27,179 nucleotides of DNA from Candidatus Thorarchaeota archaeon (GCA_038893995.1 JAWAQK010000033.1:1-27179); one strand, 5' to 3'; shown: positions 5,281 to 21,819, counted from the stretch's first letter. The notes: generated by a model not told the origin, from the sequence alone. Numbers and translations: made by a program.

Positions 5281-5393
5281 GCCCGGATAGCCAAGTGGTT
5301 TACGGCGGTAGCCTGGAGATGCCCATGGCATTAGAACTGGAGAGCTACTCTCCCAGATGGGAGGCATGAGTTCGAATCTCATTCCGGGCGCCA
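5281..5393 (+). tRNA. tRNA-Ser(GGA) with a 24-nt intron at 37/38 (5319-5342) and encoded CCA
   Basis: Acceptor stem GCCCGGA/TCCGGGC, discriminator G, CCA; D arm GCC...GGC; anticodon stem GTAGC/GCTAC with CT-GGA-G; long variable arm CTCCCAGATGGGAG; T arm ATGAG-TTCGAAT-CTCAT. Confidence 0.93.
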
Positions 5394-13707: not shown

Positions 13708-15147
13708 CTAGACAAGACGAAAGTGACCAGGCCGAGGTTCGTACAAGACCCCAGCCTCCTTCATCTTGGAGAGCTCTGCTGCGACCTGGTGAACATCCAT
13801 ACCTGCTTCGACAGCGATCTCGTCAAGAGTCGGTCCCAATGCTGTGGTTGTCCCAGAGTCAAGCCGGCTGAGCACCTTTAGTAACTTGGTGCTGAACTTC
13901 TCAATACGAGCTTCTTCACCCCACCTGTCCGCCGCATCAGCCTTGACCTGTACCAGCTCTATATATGACCTCAGCGCCGGCTCAAGCACTCTGTCCCAGG
14001 AGCCCCGAACATCATTGACTACAATCCGTTCCTTCCACTGTGACCTGGCTGTCGATCTCGCGACACGAATTGCACTCAAGGAACGCCCGTCCTGATCAGC
14101 ATCAAGCAGACCCCCTCTACACATTACTGTGTCAGGGAGGCCATAGATCTCCTTGATGTGCTCAATCCGTCGGAGCACGTGTTTGACACTTGCAACTATG
14201 GTCTGTTCAGAAACCTGCGGTGAGAGAAGCTGGTAAGTGATAATTGACTTTGTAATGGGGAGTCTGAGGGTCCCCCAGTCGCGCGGCTCAATCCAGAAGT
14301 CGTCCGATGTCAGTACCAGAGGTATGTCGGGCAGCGTGGACGTATTCGGATCTGTCAACGTGCTCAGTGAAACTTCTCTGAATCCAGACATGTCCCTCCT
14401 TTCAACACAGAGCTTCCGCAGATGAGCGGGACTGTATGTTCCCACTTCAAGTCGCCACAACCTGGGGATGTCCACCTGAATACCACTGATGTCAATGGAG
14501 CGACTCCGCCTGTTTCGGAAACTTGGTGGTACTATTCCTCTCATGAATGACAGTAGCTGTCGGATATGTCTTTGTGACGCTTGCGCCTGGACCCCACAGG
14601 TGAGCCCTCCGACCGAATCAGCATATGGAGGGCTAGATATGAAGAGCCGAGTGAAGACCGCCTTGCTTGACTCCTCCAGACCTACATGTTCGAACAGCAG
14701 TTCAGACAGCTCCGAGAGCTGCATGGGCCGGGGAATGATTCTCGTCACATCGAGAGGCTGACTCTTGACACTCTCAGCCATGAATGCCTCAACACTAGTT
14801 CCATTGCGTTCGATAAGGTGTGGAACGGCCAGCCGTCGACCAATGACCTCTACGAACGATCCGTCCGGTGGAGCGTCCTCATCTGGATCCAGACAGATGG
14901 GCGTGCCACTTGCAAGCCAGGGACTGGGCGATACGAAGAATAGCGATCTGTACCTAGTGTGGCGCACAAAGCCACGGAACCTGTATAGCTGTCCTCCAAT
15001 GCGTTTTCTGAAGTCACTCACGAAGGTACGTTCCCACTCAGCAAGCTCTGAACCGCTCTCCCTCTCAAACACGTCTCGTTTACCCTCGACCTGTTCGAGA
15101 GGGTCGCGCTTTTCTGTGCCTGGAATGTCAGGACCCCGTGTTTCCAT
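13708..15147 (-). CDS. Degenerate MCM-like protein (OB-like N-terminus, eroded AAA+ core, AAA lid, C-terminal winged helix)
   Basis: HVGLEESSKAVFTRLF...RQLLSFMRGIVP parallels MCM IYGxExxKxAIxLxLF...GDPGTAKSQLLxYxxxxAP but has no P-loop. GRSLSAIRVARSTAR...IVVNDV is a lid-like helix pair. KEAGVLYEPRPGHFRLV matches the archaeal MCM winged-helix end. Start is ATG 15147 or GTG 15201. Confidence 0.6.
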   Translation of the reverse strand: METRGPDIPGTEKRDPLEQVEGKRDVFERESGSELAEWERTFVSDFRKRIGGQLYRFRGFVRHTRYRSLFFVSPSPWLASGTPICLDPDEDAPPDGSFVEVIGRRLAVPHLIERNGTSVEAFMAESVKSQPLDVTRIIPRPMQLSELSELLFEHVGLEESSKAVFTRLFISSPPYADSVGGLTCGVQAQASQRHIRQLLSFMRGIVPPSFRNRRSRSIDISGIQVDIPRLWRLEVGTYSPAHLRKLCVERRDMSGFREVSLSTLTDPNTSTLPDIPLVLTSDDFWIEPRDWGTLRLPITKSIITYQLLSPQVSEQTIVASVKHVLRRIEHIKEIYGLPDTVMCRGGLLDADQDGRSLSAIRVARSTARSQWKERIVVNDVRGSWDRVLEPALRSYIELVQVKADAADRWGEEARIEKFSTKLLKVLSRLDSGTTTALGPTLDEIAVEAGMDVHQVAAELSKMKEAGVLYEPRPGHFRLV

Positions 15148-15495
15148 AGTCAGTCCCCACCTGTGTTCGGGGCGCTCCGTTTGAGAAACGTTTCCTGCCA
15201 CTACCTACTGAGAGCCTCTGTGCGTCCAGCTCTTGAGCTGAGGAGCGGTGAACTGGAACCGAAGCACAATCAGGTCGGTGTAGGCCATGTCAGCATATGA
15301 GTTTTGAGCCTAGGATGTAGAAGCGAAGACCCTGTCTTGCGTTGGTTGAGGCACAGGCTCTCTCTCATCGTGGATATGAGAGTGCATGCGGGGGATTCTG
15401 GCATGTAGCAGGACTCCTTAGAATCAATGAATCCTCCAACGGAGACATGGCGCTTGGGGAGAATCAAGAACACTGGGTTAAGAGAACTGGAATGT

Positions 15496-15541: not shown

Positions 15542-16681
15542 CTAGATACAGCGGTGAATCACTTCTGGTCCTGCCTCTTCAAACTCCTTCTTCGAGACCC
15601 ACATCTTCTGGAAGGTCTTGAGCGAGGCAAGTATGGACCCACCAATCCAGACGGAATACTGTCGCTCGGGCGGAGCAATTATGCGCACCTCGATATTCTC
15701 GGGAACCAGCTCGCTTATCTCCTTGTGGAGCCGCTCCTTCAGGCCCGGGAACATTGTCGAACCGCCGGACAGCACTATGTTGGCGTACAGATCACGTCGC
15801 AGGTCCACGTCACAGGCCTTGATAGACTCGACAATGTGTTCGTCCAGAGGTACAGTGTCAAGCCCGATAGCACTCGGGTTGAAGAACAACTCTGGTGCCT
15901 GGAAACGTTCTGCGCCAATCGTGATCACCTCACCATCGGGCAACATGTAGGGCTTGTCAACACCAGCCTTGTCGGCGACCGTCCGCTCACGCTCCGGATC
16001 AAGAGCAACGTAGCAAAGCTTCTCCTTTATGTCACGGACAATCTCCTTCTCCGCTCCGCTGACGAAGGAATAGCCTCTCTGTCTCAGCAGCCGACGCAAG
16101 TATTCGGTTATGTCTCGCCCAGCCAAATCAATTCGACGAATTGCATGGTTGATTGAGAAACCCTCGTAGATCGGGACAATGTGTGTGACACCATCACCAG
16201 AGTCGATAACCAGACCGGTCGTGCGTCCTGAAGCATATAGTGAGAGGACGGCCTGTGTTGCAACGTAAACTGCGGGAACACCGAAGTTGTCAAACATCAC
16301 AGACGCCATGCGTTCTCTGTTCTCACGGGGGTTGAAAGGTGCTTCAGTCAGCAGGACAGGGTTCTCGCTGGGATCTACCTTGAGGTCGTTGTAGAACGTG
16401 TAAGACCATATCTTCTCAATTGCATCCCAGTCATCAATCACACCATGGGTGATTGGATACACGAGACGGAGAACACCCCTGAGGTTTATGGCCTCTTCAC
16501 CAATGTAGTAGTCCCTGGTGTAGTGATCCACGTCCGTCATGATGTGCTCGTATCTCGGATATCCAATCAGTGTAGGCCAGACACTGCGAGGCTGATCCTC
16601 ACCAGCGTAGCCGTTCTTCGACAGGCCAGTACCGTTATCAATGACGATAGGTTTGCTGCCTAGAAACATGTCTTCAGCCAT
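15542..16681 (-). CDS. Actin (Asgard/Lokiactin-like, eukaryote-type)
   Basis: [123 protein letters not shown] upstream. Confidence 0.98.
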
Positions 16682-16810
16682 CTTGGTTCGCTCCTCTTTC
16701 TCTTTGTCATGCGGGTATGTGGAAACGGGTCATTTCATGTCAGGAGTACTGACAGCACGATCACCGAGTCCAACCAGCCACCATCGGTGAGTATGTACGG
16801 CATGTGATAC

Positions 16811-16828
16811 TATTTAAGGGTTGTTTGA
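16811..16828 (-). promoter_or_regulatory. Probable actin promoter (BRE + TATA)
   Basis: Minus strand TCAAACAAC-CCTTAAATA; would give a leader of about 100 nt containing the SD. Confidence 0.5.
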
Positions 16829-16837
16829 ATAGGCGTT

Positions 16838-16862
16838 ATATATACATTACATATGTATATAT
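16838..16862. repeat. Perfect 10-bp AT-rich inverted repeat with a 5-nt spacer (candidate operator)
   Basis: ATATATACAT-tacat-ATGTATATAT, with nested palindrome TACATATGTA (16848-16857). Confidence 0.6.
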
Positions 16863-17005
16863 TATATAGCGATATTTGCCCGGCTGAACCCGGTGAAGCC
16901 AATCTTTGGGGAGTGAGTGGTCGTGACTCGACAGAAGGCGTCTTTGGTATGACCTGGGTATTATCAGGGTAATACAGTTCTGACGACGAACGACCTAAGA
17001 AATGT

Positions 17006-17018
17006 CAAAGATATATAA
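17006..17018 (+). promoter_or_regulatory. BRE/TATA of the wHTH-CARF-like gene
   Basis: CAAAG-ATATATAA about 30 nt before ATG 17048. Confidence 0.55.
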
Positions 17019-17047
17019 GAGAATTATATTCAATATATTCGAGACCT

Positions 17048-17842
17048 ATGCACCGTAACATCGACGAACTCGTCCGCAAGGAGATAGAGAGTGTAAGGGC
17101 TAGGAAGATCATTCTCGAGGAGCTTGAGAAAGGATCAAGGAATGGGAATGAGCTCAGAAAGAGAATACAGGAGGATATGATTGAGCAGGCGAGGGAAAAG
17201 GACCCAGGGAAGACGATCGATCCAGACGAGTACGTAGTCACGGACCCGAAGCTCTACTTCAACACAAGACATCTCGAGTCGATGGGCCTCATAGTCAGTC
17301 ATAAGGAGTCCCAGCAGAGAGTATTCATGCTACATCCGAAGTCAGTCCACGCAGTCCGTCGCGTCCTTGGCGTCACAAGACCCACAGTCATATTTACGTC
17401 CATGACCCGACCCGATGACATAAGGCCGTTAATGCACTGGTTCACTGCAGAGGCAGAATCACACTTCAAGAGCCTGAGACTAATAGTGGAGAAGGAGCGA
17501 TTCTCGAAGGGCGTGACAAAGGATCTAGAGAGATTCGTGGCAGAGGGTAGCACCAAACGATGGTCGAGTCATTGGGACGAACTGCCAGAGCATGTAGTAG
17601 GATATTATGACGGGGGTACACAGGGAGACCTGATGGCGACATACGCGCACATTGAGAGGATGCTTATGGAGGAGATACCTGAGAGGAGCGTAGTGTTCGA
17701 TCTCTCTACAGCACCACCCGTGATAGCGATCGCGTTCTGTCTGCTATCAAACGATTACGCAATTCCAGCCATCTACATCAGGCGCAGAGTCGGTCCCAAG
17801 ACAGGGATCACGCACTACATTCCAGGAGCTGGTCTGATCTGA
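17048..17842 (+). CDS. Winged-helix regulator with a C-terminal CARF-like Rossmann domain
   Basis: N-terminal PadR/ArsR-like wHTH (IILEELEKGSRNGNELRKRI...KLYFNTRHLESMGLI...RVFML). C-terminal TVIFTS...DLMATYAHIERML...VVFDLSTAPPVIAIAFCLLS...PAIYI resembles the CARF DxTGG helix-strand pattern. Confidence 0.55.
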   Translation: MHRNIDELVRKEIESVRARKIILEELEKGSRNGNELRKRIQEDMIEQAREKDPGKTIDPDEYVVTDPKLYFNTRHLESMGLIVSHKESQQRVFMLHPKSVHAVRRVLGVTRPTVIFTSMTRPDDIRPLMHWFTAEAESHFKSLRLIVEKERFSKGVTKDLERFVAEGSTKRWSSHWDELPEHVVGYYDGGTQGDLMATYAHIERMLMEEIPERSVVFDLSTAPPVIAIAFCLLSNDYAIPAIYIRRRVGPKTGITHYIPGAGLI

Positions 17843-18546
17843 AGAACAGACATCTGCCGCTCGAGAGACTAGACATCGACTTTGCGCTCTCATCCCTCAT
17901 TGATCTTGTCACGAAGGATCTCTCAGCGGTGAGTGCAACTGACTCGAGGCTAAGGGCCAAGTTCACGAGATGGATCAACCAGCTCGTCACCATAAGAGAG
18001 GGAATACACAGGGCCGCGGCGACTCTGAATGAGAGACTGGTCGGAACTGTAGCACTGAATGTTGATCCGGAGTTGCTGACCGTTGCCATGTTTCAGCCCA
18101 GCACCAGAAACGTGTTTCTTGAGATTGAAACTCATCATTGCAGGCAGGGAAGGAGTGTTCAGTGCGAGCATGCAAGGAGACTCTCTCTGATCAGTGATCT
18201 GGCGCGCGTCTTGGCCCTAGTCGGGGATGCCGCCCTGTCAATTGCTGTGGTACATAGACTGTGGAACCCCTCGGTGCTCAGCGTGGGACGCCTCACACAG
18301 GTAAGAGCCAAACTTGTGAGCAATGAGAAACTCGCACAGGTATGCGACAGATGGGGCCTGTATGAGATGAGGATCCACTTTGATCCTGAGGTCACCACTA
18401 GGTCAGAGATAGATCGCGTCAAGGGGACGCTTGTGGAGGCGATAATTGGAGCAATCTACGTCGAGCATGGAATCGACGGAGTAGTGAAGACCACAGGGTA
18501 CATCCTAGCTCTCGACGAAATGCAGAAATCAGAACTGGGGGTCTGA
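17839..18546 (+). CDS. RNase III-domain protein (Mini-III-like, no dsRBD) with an N-terminal helical extension
   Basis: LALVGDAAL, GRLTQVRAKLVSNEKLAQ..WGL, GTLVEAIIGAIY. The frame is open back to CTG 17839, which overlaps the upstream TGA (CTGA); the track calls GTG 17929. Confidence 0.85.
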   Translation: MKNRHLPLERLDIDFALSSLIDLVTKDLSAVSATDSRLRAKFTRWINQLVTIREGIHRAAATLNERLVGTVALNVDPELLTVAMFQPSTRNVFLEIETHHCRQGRSVQCEHARRLSLISDLARVLALVGDAALSIAVVHRLWNPSVLSVGRLTQVRAKLVSNEKLAQVCDRWGLYEMRIHFDPEVTTRSEIDRVKGTLVEAIIGAIYVEHGIDGVVKTTGYILALDEMQKSELGV

Positions 18547-20070
18547 CCCGGTCACATCCACATCCGTACGGAACACCTCATCGAACCGTCTGCGAACCTG
18601 CTCGGCATTCACTGGATCGCTGTACACCCTGATGCAGGGTATTGTCTTCTTCTGTTGTCTGAGTGTTGCGATCAGAGGATTCCCTTCCCTAAGCTCTCTC
18701 AACTCTCTGAGTAAATAGCCGGACGACTCGCTTCCCACGAGAAGGGGAATGGAACCAATGCCCTTATCGCCAACTTCCGGGTCTAGCACATCAATCACCG
18801 CGCCACCGATATCTCCGGATAGTTCCGTCTCAACCTCACTGAGCCGTTCCAAGTCTTCTGACAACCTGAGGATCTCATTCCAGGTGTCCTGAGAGAACAT
18901 CCCCTTCGGTCTAGACACCACGACCTTGAACAGCCGACGGTACCTGATGCGGGCTGCATAATCAGATACAAAATCGATCTCAGAGCTCTCGAGCCAACGG
19001 TAGAGATCGTCATCCGTCATGCGAGTGAAGAGGCCTATGCACTCCTCTCTGGACAGTTGTGTCTCCTTGATTCTAGAGTATGTGGCCTTGCAGGTCATGG
19101 CCTCGGCCACCCTCACTGCATGATGGAGATACAGGTCGCTGAACATCCAGTTACGGCTCAGGATGAGTGACTCAAGCGAGTGCAGTGCCTTCAGCATGAA
19201 GGCCCGAACCCACTGGCCTGCAGAGTCTAGTACTACCCGGTTCGTCAGCAGAACACGTTCTGCGGGGAACACCCCCAGTTGTACTCCACTGAAATGTGCA
19301 TCCCGTATCAGGTAATCGGTCTTGTCGATGTCCAGTGGTGAGTCCAAGAAGTCCGAGATGAGGGATAGGAGCGGATCCTGAGTCCTCCGCTTCAGGACGC
19401 CAACGACTGCGTTCGGGTCAATGTCATTCTTCTCGAGCACATCGACCAGATCACTCTTCAGAATGAGATATTCTCCAATGTCTGTGTGATCTAGACCACA
19501 CCATGACTCAAGTGCAGGCTCGATCGTATGAGAAGTGGGGGGGTGTCCAACATCATGGAGAAGAGCGGCAGCGCGAAATACCCTCTGGTGATAGCCATCC
19601 ATTAGCTCGGAGATCGGGCGGAAGCAGGGATGGGCAAGGTCATCGCAGTAACTGACCACAGCGATGCACTTCTGTGCCAGATAATTGGTGCCCAGACTGT
19701 GCTCGAACCGCGTATGAGTCGCGCCAGGATAGACTATGTGAGCTGGCCCCAGTTGCTTGATGTGACGAAGCCTCAGAACTTCCCATGTTGAAACGATATC
19801 AAGCTCCCACGGAGCCAGTATTATTGCGCCATATACTGGATCCTGAATTGCCTTCTGCCGGGAATGTCGCTCTGCAAGGCAGAGCATCTTCTCATGCCGT
19901 GCCTTGAGTCGCTGAATTGACGCCCATACTGCATCCTGACGTGCACTGGCAGCCTCAATGTCCGAGAATCTCATGCCAGTGACCTGGACAAGTCGAACAA
20001 TATCGGAACTGACATCTTGGACCCGAGATGAATCAACACGAGGGATGCGTCCCCTGGGCTTCATGGTCAC
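18529..20070 (-). CDS. HD-domain phosphohydrolase (SAMHD1/YdhJ-like dNTP triphosphohydrolase family)
   Basis: IQDPVYG, RLRHIKQLG, YPGATHTRFEHSLG, ALLHDVGHPPTSH..E, DIDKTDYLIRD, LYLHH; N-terminal extension of about 70 aa. Confidence 0.9.
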   Translation of the reverse strand: MTMKPRGRIPRVDSSRVQDVSSDIVRLVQVTGMRFSDIEAASARQDAVWASIQRLKARHEKMLCLAERHSRQKAIQDPVYGAIILAPWELDIVSTWEVLRLRHIKQLGPAHIVYPGATHTRFEHSLGTNYLAQKCIAVVSYCDDLAHPCFRPISELMDGYHQRVFRAAALLHDVGHPPTSHTIEPALESWCGLDHTDIGEYLILKSDLVDVLEKNDIDPNAVVGVLKRRTQDPLLSLISDFLDSPLDIDKTDYLIRDAHFSGVQLGVFPAERVLLTNRVVLDSAGQWVRAFMLKALHSLESLILSRNWMFSDLYLHHAVRVAEAMTCKATYSRIKETQLSREECIGLFTRMTDDDLYRWLESSEIDFVSDYAARIRYRRLFKVVVSRPKGMFSQDTWNEILRLSEDLERLSEVETELSGDIGGAVIDVLDPEVGDKGIGSIPLLVGSESSGYLLRELRELREGNPLIATLRQQKKTIPCIRVYSDPVNAEQVRRRFDEVFRTDVDVTGSDPQF

Positions 20071-20139
20071 TTACAAGTACATCGGAGGATGAGAAGATAT
20101 CGATTCAATCACTAGTGCCTGCACCAACCGATTGAGATG

Positions 20140-20682
20140 TCAAAGGTTTCGTGACAACTTGACCCTATCACGTGCTGAATAGTAATCCATGGGATCCCCG
20201 TGAGAAATGGCGGCACAGTATTCATCGGGCTTACAGTATCCCCATTCTCTCATCCTCTTGCAGTTGAAACGGAAACCAACACGATAGTGAGGGGGCTGTA
20301 TCAACCCAGCGCGTACTAGGAAGTCGGTGACTATCCGAATCCTCCTGACCTCAAACGCGTTTCTTATGCACGGAGGGGCGCGATCAAGTCCGATGCGTCG
20401 TGCCTCTCGAAATAGACGGGACCAAAGAAGACATTCCCTTGGAGAATAGAGCTGGTCGCATCTTGGACAAAGGTCTGCAAGGATTGAAACACGACAGAGC
20501 CCGACTCTGGCGGAGGTGGTGAGCCCAGCAGGTTTCAATAGGTCAAATCGGATCTCAGCGAATCGATCAGGGTCAAAGGAACCGAACTCGTCAGCAAACA
20601 TGCGAATCGCGTTCTCGATCTCCTTTGGAGATACTCTCCAACATGAGAGAAACTGAGACCGGCCCATCCTTGTTCGCTGCAT
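20140..20682 (-). CDS. Small protein with a primase large subunit (PriL) C-terminal Fe-S-like motif
   Basis: PPCI...FL..AG...NCKRMREWGYC....YC....HGDPMDYY has four Cys arranged like the PriL C-terminal domain, but much shortened. Confidence 0.55.
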   Translation of the reverse strand: MQRTRMGRSQFLSCWRVSPKEIENAIRMFADEFGSFDPDRFAEIRFDLLKPAGLTTSARVGLCRVSILADLCPRCDQLYSPRECLLWSRLFREARRIGLDRAPPCIRNAFEVRRIRIVTDFLVRAGLIQPPHYRVGFRFNCKRMREWGYCKPDEYCAAISHGDPMDYYSARDRVKLSRNL

Positions 20683-20814: not shown

Positions 20815-21819
20815 ATGATCAGATTGGCACTCGAGAAGAGTGTTGTATTGAAAGAGGCAATCACATCAATAGTCGTTGGAGACTTCGAGAGGAACAACAA
20901 TGACGAGATAGCCATAATGACAGCTGGAGGCAATCTGAGGGTCCTTAGGCTGGACTCAAAATCCAGAGAAACTCTCGAGATCGCAAGCATGGGGGGATTT
21001 TCCGCCACCTCGATGTGCGCTGGAAATGTCACGGGGACCGAGGGAATTGACTTTGTGATGGCTGAGCGGGGGGGAACACTGAGAATAGTGTCCCTGCACA
21101 ATGGGGCTCTCGATGAAGTTGGAGTGTATCCATTGGGAACAGAACCGACTGCTCTGGCAGTCCTCGATGTATTGGGCACCGATCGTGCGGGAGTTGTCGT
21201 CGCGACTAACGACTGTGCCATCAGATGCTACGGTTGGTTGGGGGACTGTCTAGATAAGATGGCACACAAGTCGGTAGACTATCCGATAATATCCATAGGG
21301 GAGTACAGGGCCAGGGGAATCCCCTACTCGCGTCTTGTTATTGGAGACAACAACAAGGGCCTTTATCTGTACCAGTATGCAGACGACCGCCTGCACGAGA
21401 TCGCTCGAGCAGCGGCCAGAGGAGCCGTGACATCGGTAACAGGAGGAAACATCACAGGCGGCCGGCTTGACGAGATTGTGTGTATCTCAGATGAGATCAA
21501 TATCACGGTATTCACAGCGGAGAACAACGCAATCAAGGCGATTGATAATCTAAAAGCGACCAGCAAGATAACCTCGGCAAAGACAGGAAACGTTGTGGGA
21601 AGCGGTACCTCGAACGATCAGATAATAGTGGCTCATGAGAACTCGAATGTGACGATCATGTCACTTGAGGGAAGACGACTGGTCCCCACGACAAGCCTCC
21701 GGACAGGGAGTGCTGGTCTTAGACCCCTACTGGCCATTGGCAGGCCTCGAGAGCATGGCAGCCTCATATACCATGCAGTAGATCGTACCGTAAACATCCT
21801 GTCAGTAGAGCATGTGTGA
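20815..21819 (+). CDS. Beta-propeller protein with FG-GAP/VCBS-like repeats, no signal peptide
   Basis: About seven ~45-aa repeats, including ITSIVVGDFERNNNDEIAI, TSMCAGNVTGTEGIDFVM, TALAVLDVLGTDRAGVVV, VTSVTGGNITGGRLDEIVC, ITSAKTGNVVGSGTSNDQIIV. Confidence 0.75.
   Translation: MIRLALEKSVVLKEAITSIVVGDFERNNNDEIAIMTAGGNLRVLRLDSKSRETLEIASMGGFSATSMCAGNVTGTEGIDFVMAERGGTLRIVSLHNGALDEVGVYPLGTEPTALAVLDVLGTDRAGVVVATNDCAIRCYGWLGDCLDKMAHKSVDYPIISIGEYRARGIPYSRLVIGDNNKGLYLYQYADDRLHEIARAAARGAVTSVTGGNITGGRLDEIVCISDEINITVFTAENNAIKAIDNLKATSKITSAKTGNVVGSGTSNDQIIVAHENSNVTIMSLEGRRLVPTTSLRTGSAGLRPLLAIGRPREHGSLIYHAVDRTVNILSVEHV

Follow-up and report, generated by a model that had tools for sequence, protein, structure and literature searches.

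In a stretch of 27,179 nucleotides from a Candidatus Thorarchaeota archaeon (GCA_038893995.1 JAWAQK010000033.1:1-27179, hereafter the window), four adjacent genes between positions 17,048 and 20,682 raise the question of whether they are joined by function or only by position. They encode a winged helix-turn-helix (wHTH) protein with a CARF domain, a ribonuclease III (RNase III), an HD protein and a Cys-rich protein, and are referred to below as genes A, B, C and D, respectively. An earlier note on this DNA had read them as a circuit of sensing, RNA cleavage and deoxynucleoside triphosphate (dNTP) depletion, allowing also for a chance juxtaposition of housekeeping genes. The explanation preferred here, with a confidence somewhat above even, is that A and B form a real operon of a ligand-sensing CARF regulator and a housekeeping RNase III, having C and D as unrelated neighbours, so that the idea of chance juxtaposition holds for C and D, but not for A and B.

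Gene A (17048-17842, plus strand) encodes 264 amino acids (aa) and, according to its predicted structure, is a winged helix joined to a genuine CARF fold, the former occupying approximately residues 1-107 at the N-terminal and the latter approximately residues 110-260 at the C-terminal. The Pfam search gave nothing significant, including no Pfam CARF family; the PADLOC profile CARF_m5 (PDLC01987) matches residues 63-245 (6e-15, 53.8 bits), the label denoting a minor clade of the CARF superfamily, with its meaning taken from the name of the profile. An AlphaFold2 model based on an alignment of 35 sequences reached a predicted local distance difference test (pLDDT) score of 93.5, and the top 46 Foldseek matches of this model in the PDB were all CARF proteins (best 2.4e-5, probability 1.00), among them Csm6, Cam1, Card1, Crn1/Sso2081, Csa3, Can2 and Cad1. 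Its N-terminal third resembles the winged helices of ArsR/SqrR type. Profile, model and structural comparison thus agree with the wHTH-CARF-like identity that had been proposed, and a C-terminal domain of another fold, which would have spoken against it, was not found.

Among the known proteins, Csa3 (PDB 2wte, 6wxq and 6w11, at Foldseek ranks 28, 35 and 42) is similar to A in size and in combining two domains, a CARF and a winged helix, an analogy by which A may regulate in response to a ligand. However, A carries its winged helix at the N-terminus, the reverse of the order in Csa3, and whereas Csa3 accompanies cas loci as an accessory gene, A belongs to the vertically inherited core, adjoins actin and has no cas neighbours. 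In addition, the pocket motif of A is altered, and no Cas10 was found in the genome to supply cyclic tetra-adenylate (cA4). A closer likeness is seen with the CARF_m5 proteins of other Asgard families, which are wHTH-CARF proteins of 220-260 aa having the same domain order and size as A and also adjoining actin. Compared to them, the branch of A is divergent, as the CARF_m5 profile scores 50-85 bits in the thorarchaeal family against 120-260 bits in the other Asgard families, and only in this branch does an RNase III gene belong to the operon.

Regarding the pocket, the CARF_m5 proteins of other Asgard families bear after the fourth strand a motif D-h-T-x-G-x-[RK], as in DVTCGSR, DVTDGTR and ELTGGTK. 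According to the alignment, the corresponding motif is DLSTAPP in gene A and DLSxGPP in its thorarchaeal relatives, which can be written as DLS-x-(G/A)-P-P, the basic residue being absent; the CARF domain of this family has, moreover, an insertion of approximately 25 aa. The sequence DGGTQGD (residues ~185-191) had also been considered as the pocket motif and was rejected, since the alignment places the motif at DLSTAPP.

Regarding the junction between A and B, the CTGA overlap at 17839-17842 (plus strand) described in the earlier note is present, with TGA (17840-17842) being the stop of A and CTG (17839) lying in the frame of B. At exactly this position, B starts with ATGA, GTGA or TTGA, homologous to the CTGA, in 12 of 20 orthologous loci, so that the A-B coupling is conserved among orthologues; among the other loci, the start is an ATG 11 nt upstream, overlapping A, in three cases and follows a gap of 3-16 nt in four. 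The frame of B is open from 17683 and contains no ATG, GTG or TTG ahead of the GTG at 17929. This GTG was set aside as the start, as the 30 preceding codons, counted from CTG 17839, align with the N-termini of the orthologues; a GGAG occurs at 17825-17828, 10 nt upstream of the CTG. As read from the sequence, gene B thus probably starts at CTG 17839 and extends to 18546 on the plus strand, which would involve initiation at CTG or reinitiation past the stop of A. In the same hot-spring metagenome study, another sample yielded a contig that matches this junction without any difference, CTG included, so that an isolated assembly error does not explain the CTG. Of the 24 genomes sampled from the thorarchaeal family, 23 have A and B side by side on one strand, the remaining one being fragmented; the two genes constitute a bicistronic operon specific to this family.

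The protein encoded by B has a helical N-terminal extension of approximately 75 aa, conserved in orthologues and containing an invariant Trp, followed by one RNase III domain (Pfam PF00636, Ribonuclease_3; 1.2e-14, 55.3 bits against a cut-off of 27), and no dsrm domain was found in it by Pfam. The residues G129, D130 and E200, located in the motifs LALVGD and KGTLVEA, are invariant in 21 sequences, and B is the sole RNase III match in the genome. Its best PDB sequence matches, all with modest E-values, are the RIIIDa domain of Drosha (2e-7) and Giardia Dicer, with the bacterial RNase III proteins next in order, and the NCBIfam RNaseIII equivalog model gave 41.8 bits against a cut-off of 166. 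Comparing B with class 1 RNase III (Rnc), both possess a single catalytic domain with the invariant signature Asp and Glu, but the C-terminal double-stranded RNA (dsRNA)-binding domain of Rnc is absent from B. This absence is shared with Mini-III (MrnC), and the LAxxGD/TxxEA pattern is a Mini-III trait; however, Mini-III consists of the RNase III domain alone, with approximately 140 aa, whereas B carries its extension, and no Mini-III chain appeared among the PDB sequence matches of B at E <= 0.01. The Mini-RNase III identity suggested earlier is thus at most tentative for B.

RNase III is present in 198 of the 301 genomes of the phylum. At 18 loci with RNase III in other Asgard families, family-level hidden Markov models (HMMs) detected no homologue of A, C or D nearby. 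Two enzymes sampled from these families have the size of Rnc, a dsrm domain (1.2e-11) being present in one and not detected by Pfam in the other. Meanwhile, RNase III of the B type, with the extension and without a dsRNA-binding domain, was observed in one genus of another Asgard family, on the Loki/Heimdall side (genome G062, locus L060 5632-6318; family HMM, 3e-62), and also among the Methanomicrobiales (35-42% identity; loci L087 5001-5681 and L088 5001-5714), for example in Methanofollis. Outside the thorarchaeal family, these B-type genes always stand alone, among unrelated metabolic genes, a patchy spread that suggests horizontal transfer.

To place the four genes in their surroundings, 20 window proteins were mapped by tblastn onto 20 orthologous loci, representing approximately 20 genera of the family. 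Gene order is kept in virtually every genus over a block of at least 11 kb (from 15542 to past 26443), which holds actin and A to D together with another nine genes. Consequently, the linkage of A to D, which are adjacent in 19 of 24 family genomes, says nothing specific: the genes are indeed linked in related genomes, but with at least 14 genes collinear, a comparison of neighbourhoods does not discriminate. Gene C, moreover, is dispensable to this arrangement. One genome (G015) has lost it by a clean deletion, so that only 56 nt separate B from D, and in another (G012) a CitMHS/TrkA-C transporter gene (L030 10649-12430) occupies its slot between B and D, with a short HD remnant containing four stop codons beside D. 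Both genomes keep A, B and D, and no orthologue-level HD match was found elsewhere in either of them. As judged from these sequences, C was lost twice, independently, while A, B and D stayed.

Gene C (18529-20070, minus strand, 513 aa) encodes a predicted HD phosphohydrolase of the SAMHD1/EF1143 type. Its HD (31.4 bits) and HD_assoc_2 (70.2 bits) Pfam matches are both above the cut-offs, its PDB sequence matches include 2hek (6.6e-34), EF1143 (1.8e-28) and SAMHD1 (~1e-20), and the H..HD..D metal motif is readable in EHSLG, LHDVGH and DYLIRD. These features are shared with SAMHD1, EF1143 and Aq_1910; the difference is that C is a family-specific gene, the third of three paralogues in the genome, having a N-terminal extension of approximately 70 aa and lost in two genera. 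The anti-phage dGTPase model NF041026 gave 16.7 bits against a cut-off of 400, and the PADLOC dGTPase match of 23 bits covers the HD motif only. The identification as a SAMHD1-type HD dNTPase is thus supported by domains, motif and PDB sequence matches, but not in the direction of an anti-phage dGTPase. The 3' ends of B and C converge with the 18-nt overlap noticed before (18529-18546), and in orthologues they range from an overlap of 32 nt to 47 nt apart, with one at 192 nt.

Gene D (20140-20682, minus strand, 180 aa) is co-oriented with C and located 69 nt upstream of it, as had been noted. The alignment reveals eight invariant Cys (C63, C72, C75, C84, C105, C141, C150 and C156), and a weak likeness to a winged helix is seen in the N-terminal half. 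Kinship with the C-terminal domain (CTD) of the primase subunit PriL is suggested by three weak signals: the NCBIfam PriL model (E 0.034), the VIA-align comparison with human p58C (5dqo; Z 3.5) and hhalign against the PriL of the same genome (E 0.061, probability 0.9), in which PPCI, SCK and two further Cys align. In this last alignment, C105 (PPCI), C141 (SCK/NCK), C150 and C156 of D are set against the four Cys of that PriL, from which D differs by a much shorter spacing between the first and second Cys, of approximately 35 residues, and by four more invariant Cys (C63, C72, C75 and C84) together with the winged-helix-like N-terminal half. No Pfam match was obtained for D, nor any Foldseek match in the PDB at E <= 0.001 or VIA-align wide match at Z >= 5; the PDB profile search gave nothing meaningful, and the ESM Atlas no usable match, the model of D itself being poor. 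A normal PriL of 368 aa is encoded elsewhere in the genome, and PriX is a named example of the small PriL-CTD-like proteins to which D can be compared. From its sequence, the C-terminal half of D may be a miniature PriL-CTD-like Fe-S domain; because no single signal is significant, the label PriL-like given to it earlier is plausible only. Outside the thorarchaeal family, six loci of D homologues were fetched, in five of which the profile found D; these homologues belong to three other families and have no CARF, HD or RNase III gene linked to them.

The distribution within the thorarchaeal family is also informative: of 76 genomes, 71 possess A, 73 B and 73 D, mostly as single copies, with a second match in a few genomes. 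This is the opposite of a defence-island pattern. On the window genes, PADLOC recognized only the CARF domain and the 23-bit match over the HD motif, and A to D resemble their flanks in GC content, which is flat over the region. With near-universal single-copy genes between housekeeping flanks, the role in defence that had been proposed is not sustained. The window lacks any cas gene, cyclase or array, as stated before, according to Pfam on all large open reading frames (ORFs) and the absence of tandem repeats. Outside the window, the genome has two separate type I-B cas loci, on contigs C72 (L090) and C48 (L091), which are of the TNEAP and HMARI flavours and show the order Cas8b-Cas7-Cas5-Cas3-...-Cas1. 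Neither the Cas10 models (Csm1 and Cmr2) nor the SMODS cyclase model gave a match in the genome, whose completeness is 91%, and a classical cyclic oligoadenylate (cOA) signal is therefore unsupported.

Besides B, gene A has another neighbour, an Asgard actin gene (15542-16681, minus strand; Pfam Actin 1.9e-133), which is divergent from A and lies just outside the four genes first described. Actin adjoins A in all 20 loci of the thorarchaeal family. CARF_m5 genes occur in 127 of the 301 genomes of the phylum, including many families without any RNase III, and among 20 CARF_m5 loci fetched from other Asgard families, the gene adjoins actin in 12, which cover 11 families, head-to-head in 11 (pairs at loci L061, L063-L066, L069, L070 and L073-L076). 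On the far side of CARF_m5, these families have the same housekeeping series (ComB, CDP-alcohol transferase, NTP transferase, Sua5 and others), while B, C, D and a propeller gene (20815-21819) are part of this synteny block only in the thorarchaeal family. Actin is thus the older, phylum-wide partner of A, in a pairing far wider than the A-B operon. A literature search on lokiactin with CARF, and on CARF_m5, found no paper mentioning it.

The region between actin and A (16682-17047, 366 bp), when aligned by MAFFT among 21 family orthologues, contains two TATA-like blocks that point outward and, as a further conserved element, an AT-rich quasi-palindrome, TATACAT..ATGTATA. One conserved block, TATTTAAG, is the actin TATA on the minus strand, and the other, ATATATAT, located approximately 30-40 nt ahead of the start of A, is TATA-like and belongs to A. 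In the actin-CARF_m5 spacers of other families, candidate palindromes recur with a TCTAT(C/A) half-site, as in locus L069, where a candidate palindrome CATCTCTATCA-N10-TGATAGAGATG has arms of 11 bp.

Different explanations can be given for these observations. The circuit of A to D, in which ligand sensing, RNA cleavage and dNTP depletion would serve defence or growth arrest, is highly improbable and largely refuted by the comparative data. It could appeal to the adjacency of the four genes in most family genomes, to the tight convergence always kept by the 3' ends of B and C and to the membership of C in the SAMHD1/EF1143 family; however, the adjacency is unspecific in a collinear block, C disappeared twice with A, B and D retained, and the pairs A-C, B-C, B-D and C-D never recur outside the family. 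The limited PADLOC result, the dGTPase model far below its cut-off and the character of the genes as single-copy core genes with the GC content of their flanks also disagree with it. Quite unlikely, on the other hand, is a physical complex of A and B, that is, a split, CRISPR-independent, CARF-gated nuclease where a ligand on A would switch the RNase III dimer, on the model of Csm6, Can1 and Card1, which are switched by cOA. The stop/start coupling conserved family-wide, the extension of B with its invariant Trp and the coincidence of the family-specific CARF changes (the insertion and the altered pocket) with the arrival of B downstream would fit with such an assembly. Yet no CARF gene adjoins the B-type RNase III of Methanomicrobiales or of the other Asgard genus, the CARF_m5 proteins of 11 other families do without any RNase III, and the full winged helix kept in A fits with a DNA-binding output. 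A homologue search with A found no A-RNase III fusion among longer proteins, which is weak evidence, and the complex prediction for A and B from both alignments, with a score of 0.01, counts neither way.

It is also conceivable, though unlikely, that the CARF domain of this family senses nothing and is only the dimerisation scaffold of a constitutive winged-helix regulator, B being merely co-transcribed. The loss of the basic pocket residue, the change of the motif Gly to Ala in this genome, the failure to find a cOA synthase in the genome and the low CARF_m5 scores of the family relative to the rest of Asgard are all in accordance with this. Against it, genera whose A proteins have only 34-63% overall identity still share DLSxGPP and the Thr/Ser-rich loop that follows strand 1, suggesting a maintained pocket, and the fold is predicted with high confidence. 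The preferred explanation, a real A-B operon with a ligand-sensing regulator, has weaknesses of its own. Because the basic pocket residue is lost and the insertion is present, A may bind something unusual or nothing; stop/start overlaps, being common in operons, are no proof that A and B are linked in function; and the conservation of A-B within the family is weaker than it looks, since the whole block is syntenic there.

Following this preferred explanation, A would be a dimeric transcription factor similar to Csa3, having the domain order reversed, and its CARF pocket, altered in the thorarchaeal family, would bind a small nucleotide, another small molecule or an RNA end. This ligand would not be a cOA made by Cas10, because no Cas10 was found. 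A would probably act on the 366-bp region in common with the divergent actin gene, thereby setting its own level by autoregulation of the A-B operon and, through coupled translation, the level of the RNase III. Meanwhile, B would be an ordinary homodimeric dsRNA endonuclease for the processing of ribosomal RNA, antisense RNA or noncoding RNA. C would be one of three paralogues engaged in dNTP housekeeping and D a separate core gene, both in place by shared descent and not by shared function. A more ambitious version, rather unlikely, takes A as a ligand-controlled switch on the promoter region shared with actin, which also doses the only RNase III and so would tie a nucleotide second messenger to the cytoskeleton and to dsRNA processing.

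All remaining large ORFs of the window are of the housekeeping kind: endonuclease III, Tsr3, TiaS, the ribosomal proteins S11, S4 and S13, asparaginase, TrmB, Ham1, gelsolin, actin, CDP-alcohol transferase, NTP transferase, Sua5, a THUMP protein, Cgi121 and PRTase. The presence of actin and gelsolin assigns the DNA to the Asgard archaea, and the relatives of B bear Thorarchaeota names in the databases. An archaeal RNase P RNA was recognized at 818-1155 on the plus strand (Rfam RF00373, 169.5 bits), and the ORFs 671-1168 and 879-1223 are probably spurious, as the opposite strand holds this RNA. A tRNA gene of 110 nt, probably containing an intron, lies at 5281-5390 on the plus strand (Rfam, 46 bits) and was missed by ARAGORN. 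In the interval between gelsolin and actin, an ORF of 497 aa (13708-15201, minus strand) has no Pfam match and 43-49% identity among family relatives. Beyond D, the propeller gene at 20815-21819 on the plus strand is an ORF of 334 aa, with a weak match to the BBS7 propeller, under the Pfam cut-off.

Concerning its meaning, the locus has no importance as a defence or nucleotide-depletion module, that reading having failed. What it presents is a core chromosomal regulator that makes use of a CARF sensor domain, a domain otherwise familiar from the signalling of type III CRISPR systems; across the Asgard archaea, this regulator goes together with the actin gene, and in a single family also with RNase III. 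If the ligand and DNA targets of A were found, they would offer a rare handle on the regulation of the eukaryote-like cytoskeleton in Asgard archaea, as well as an example of CARF signalling outside immunity. Moreover, if A does act as a ligand-controlled switch on the region shared with actin, the archaea that stand closest to eukaryotes among prokaryotes would have a nucleotide second messenger coupled both to the expression of the cytoskeleton and to the processing of dsRNA.

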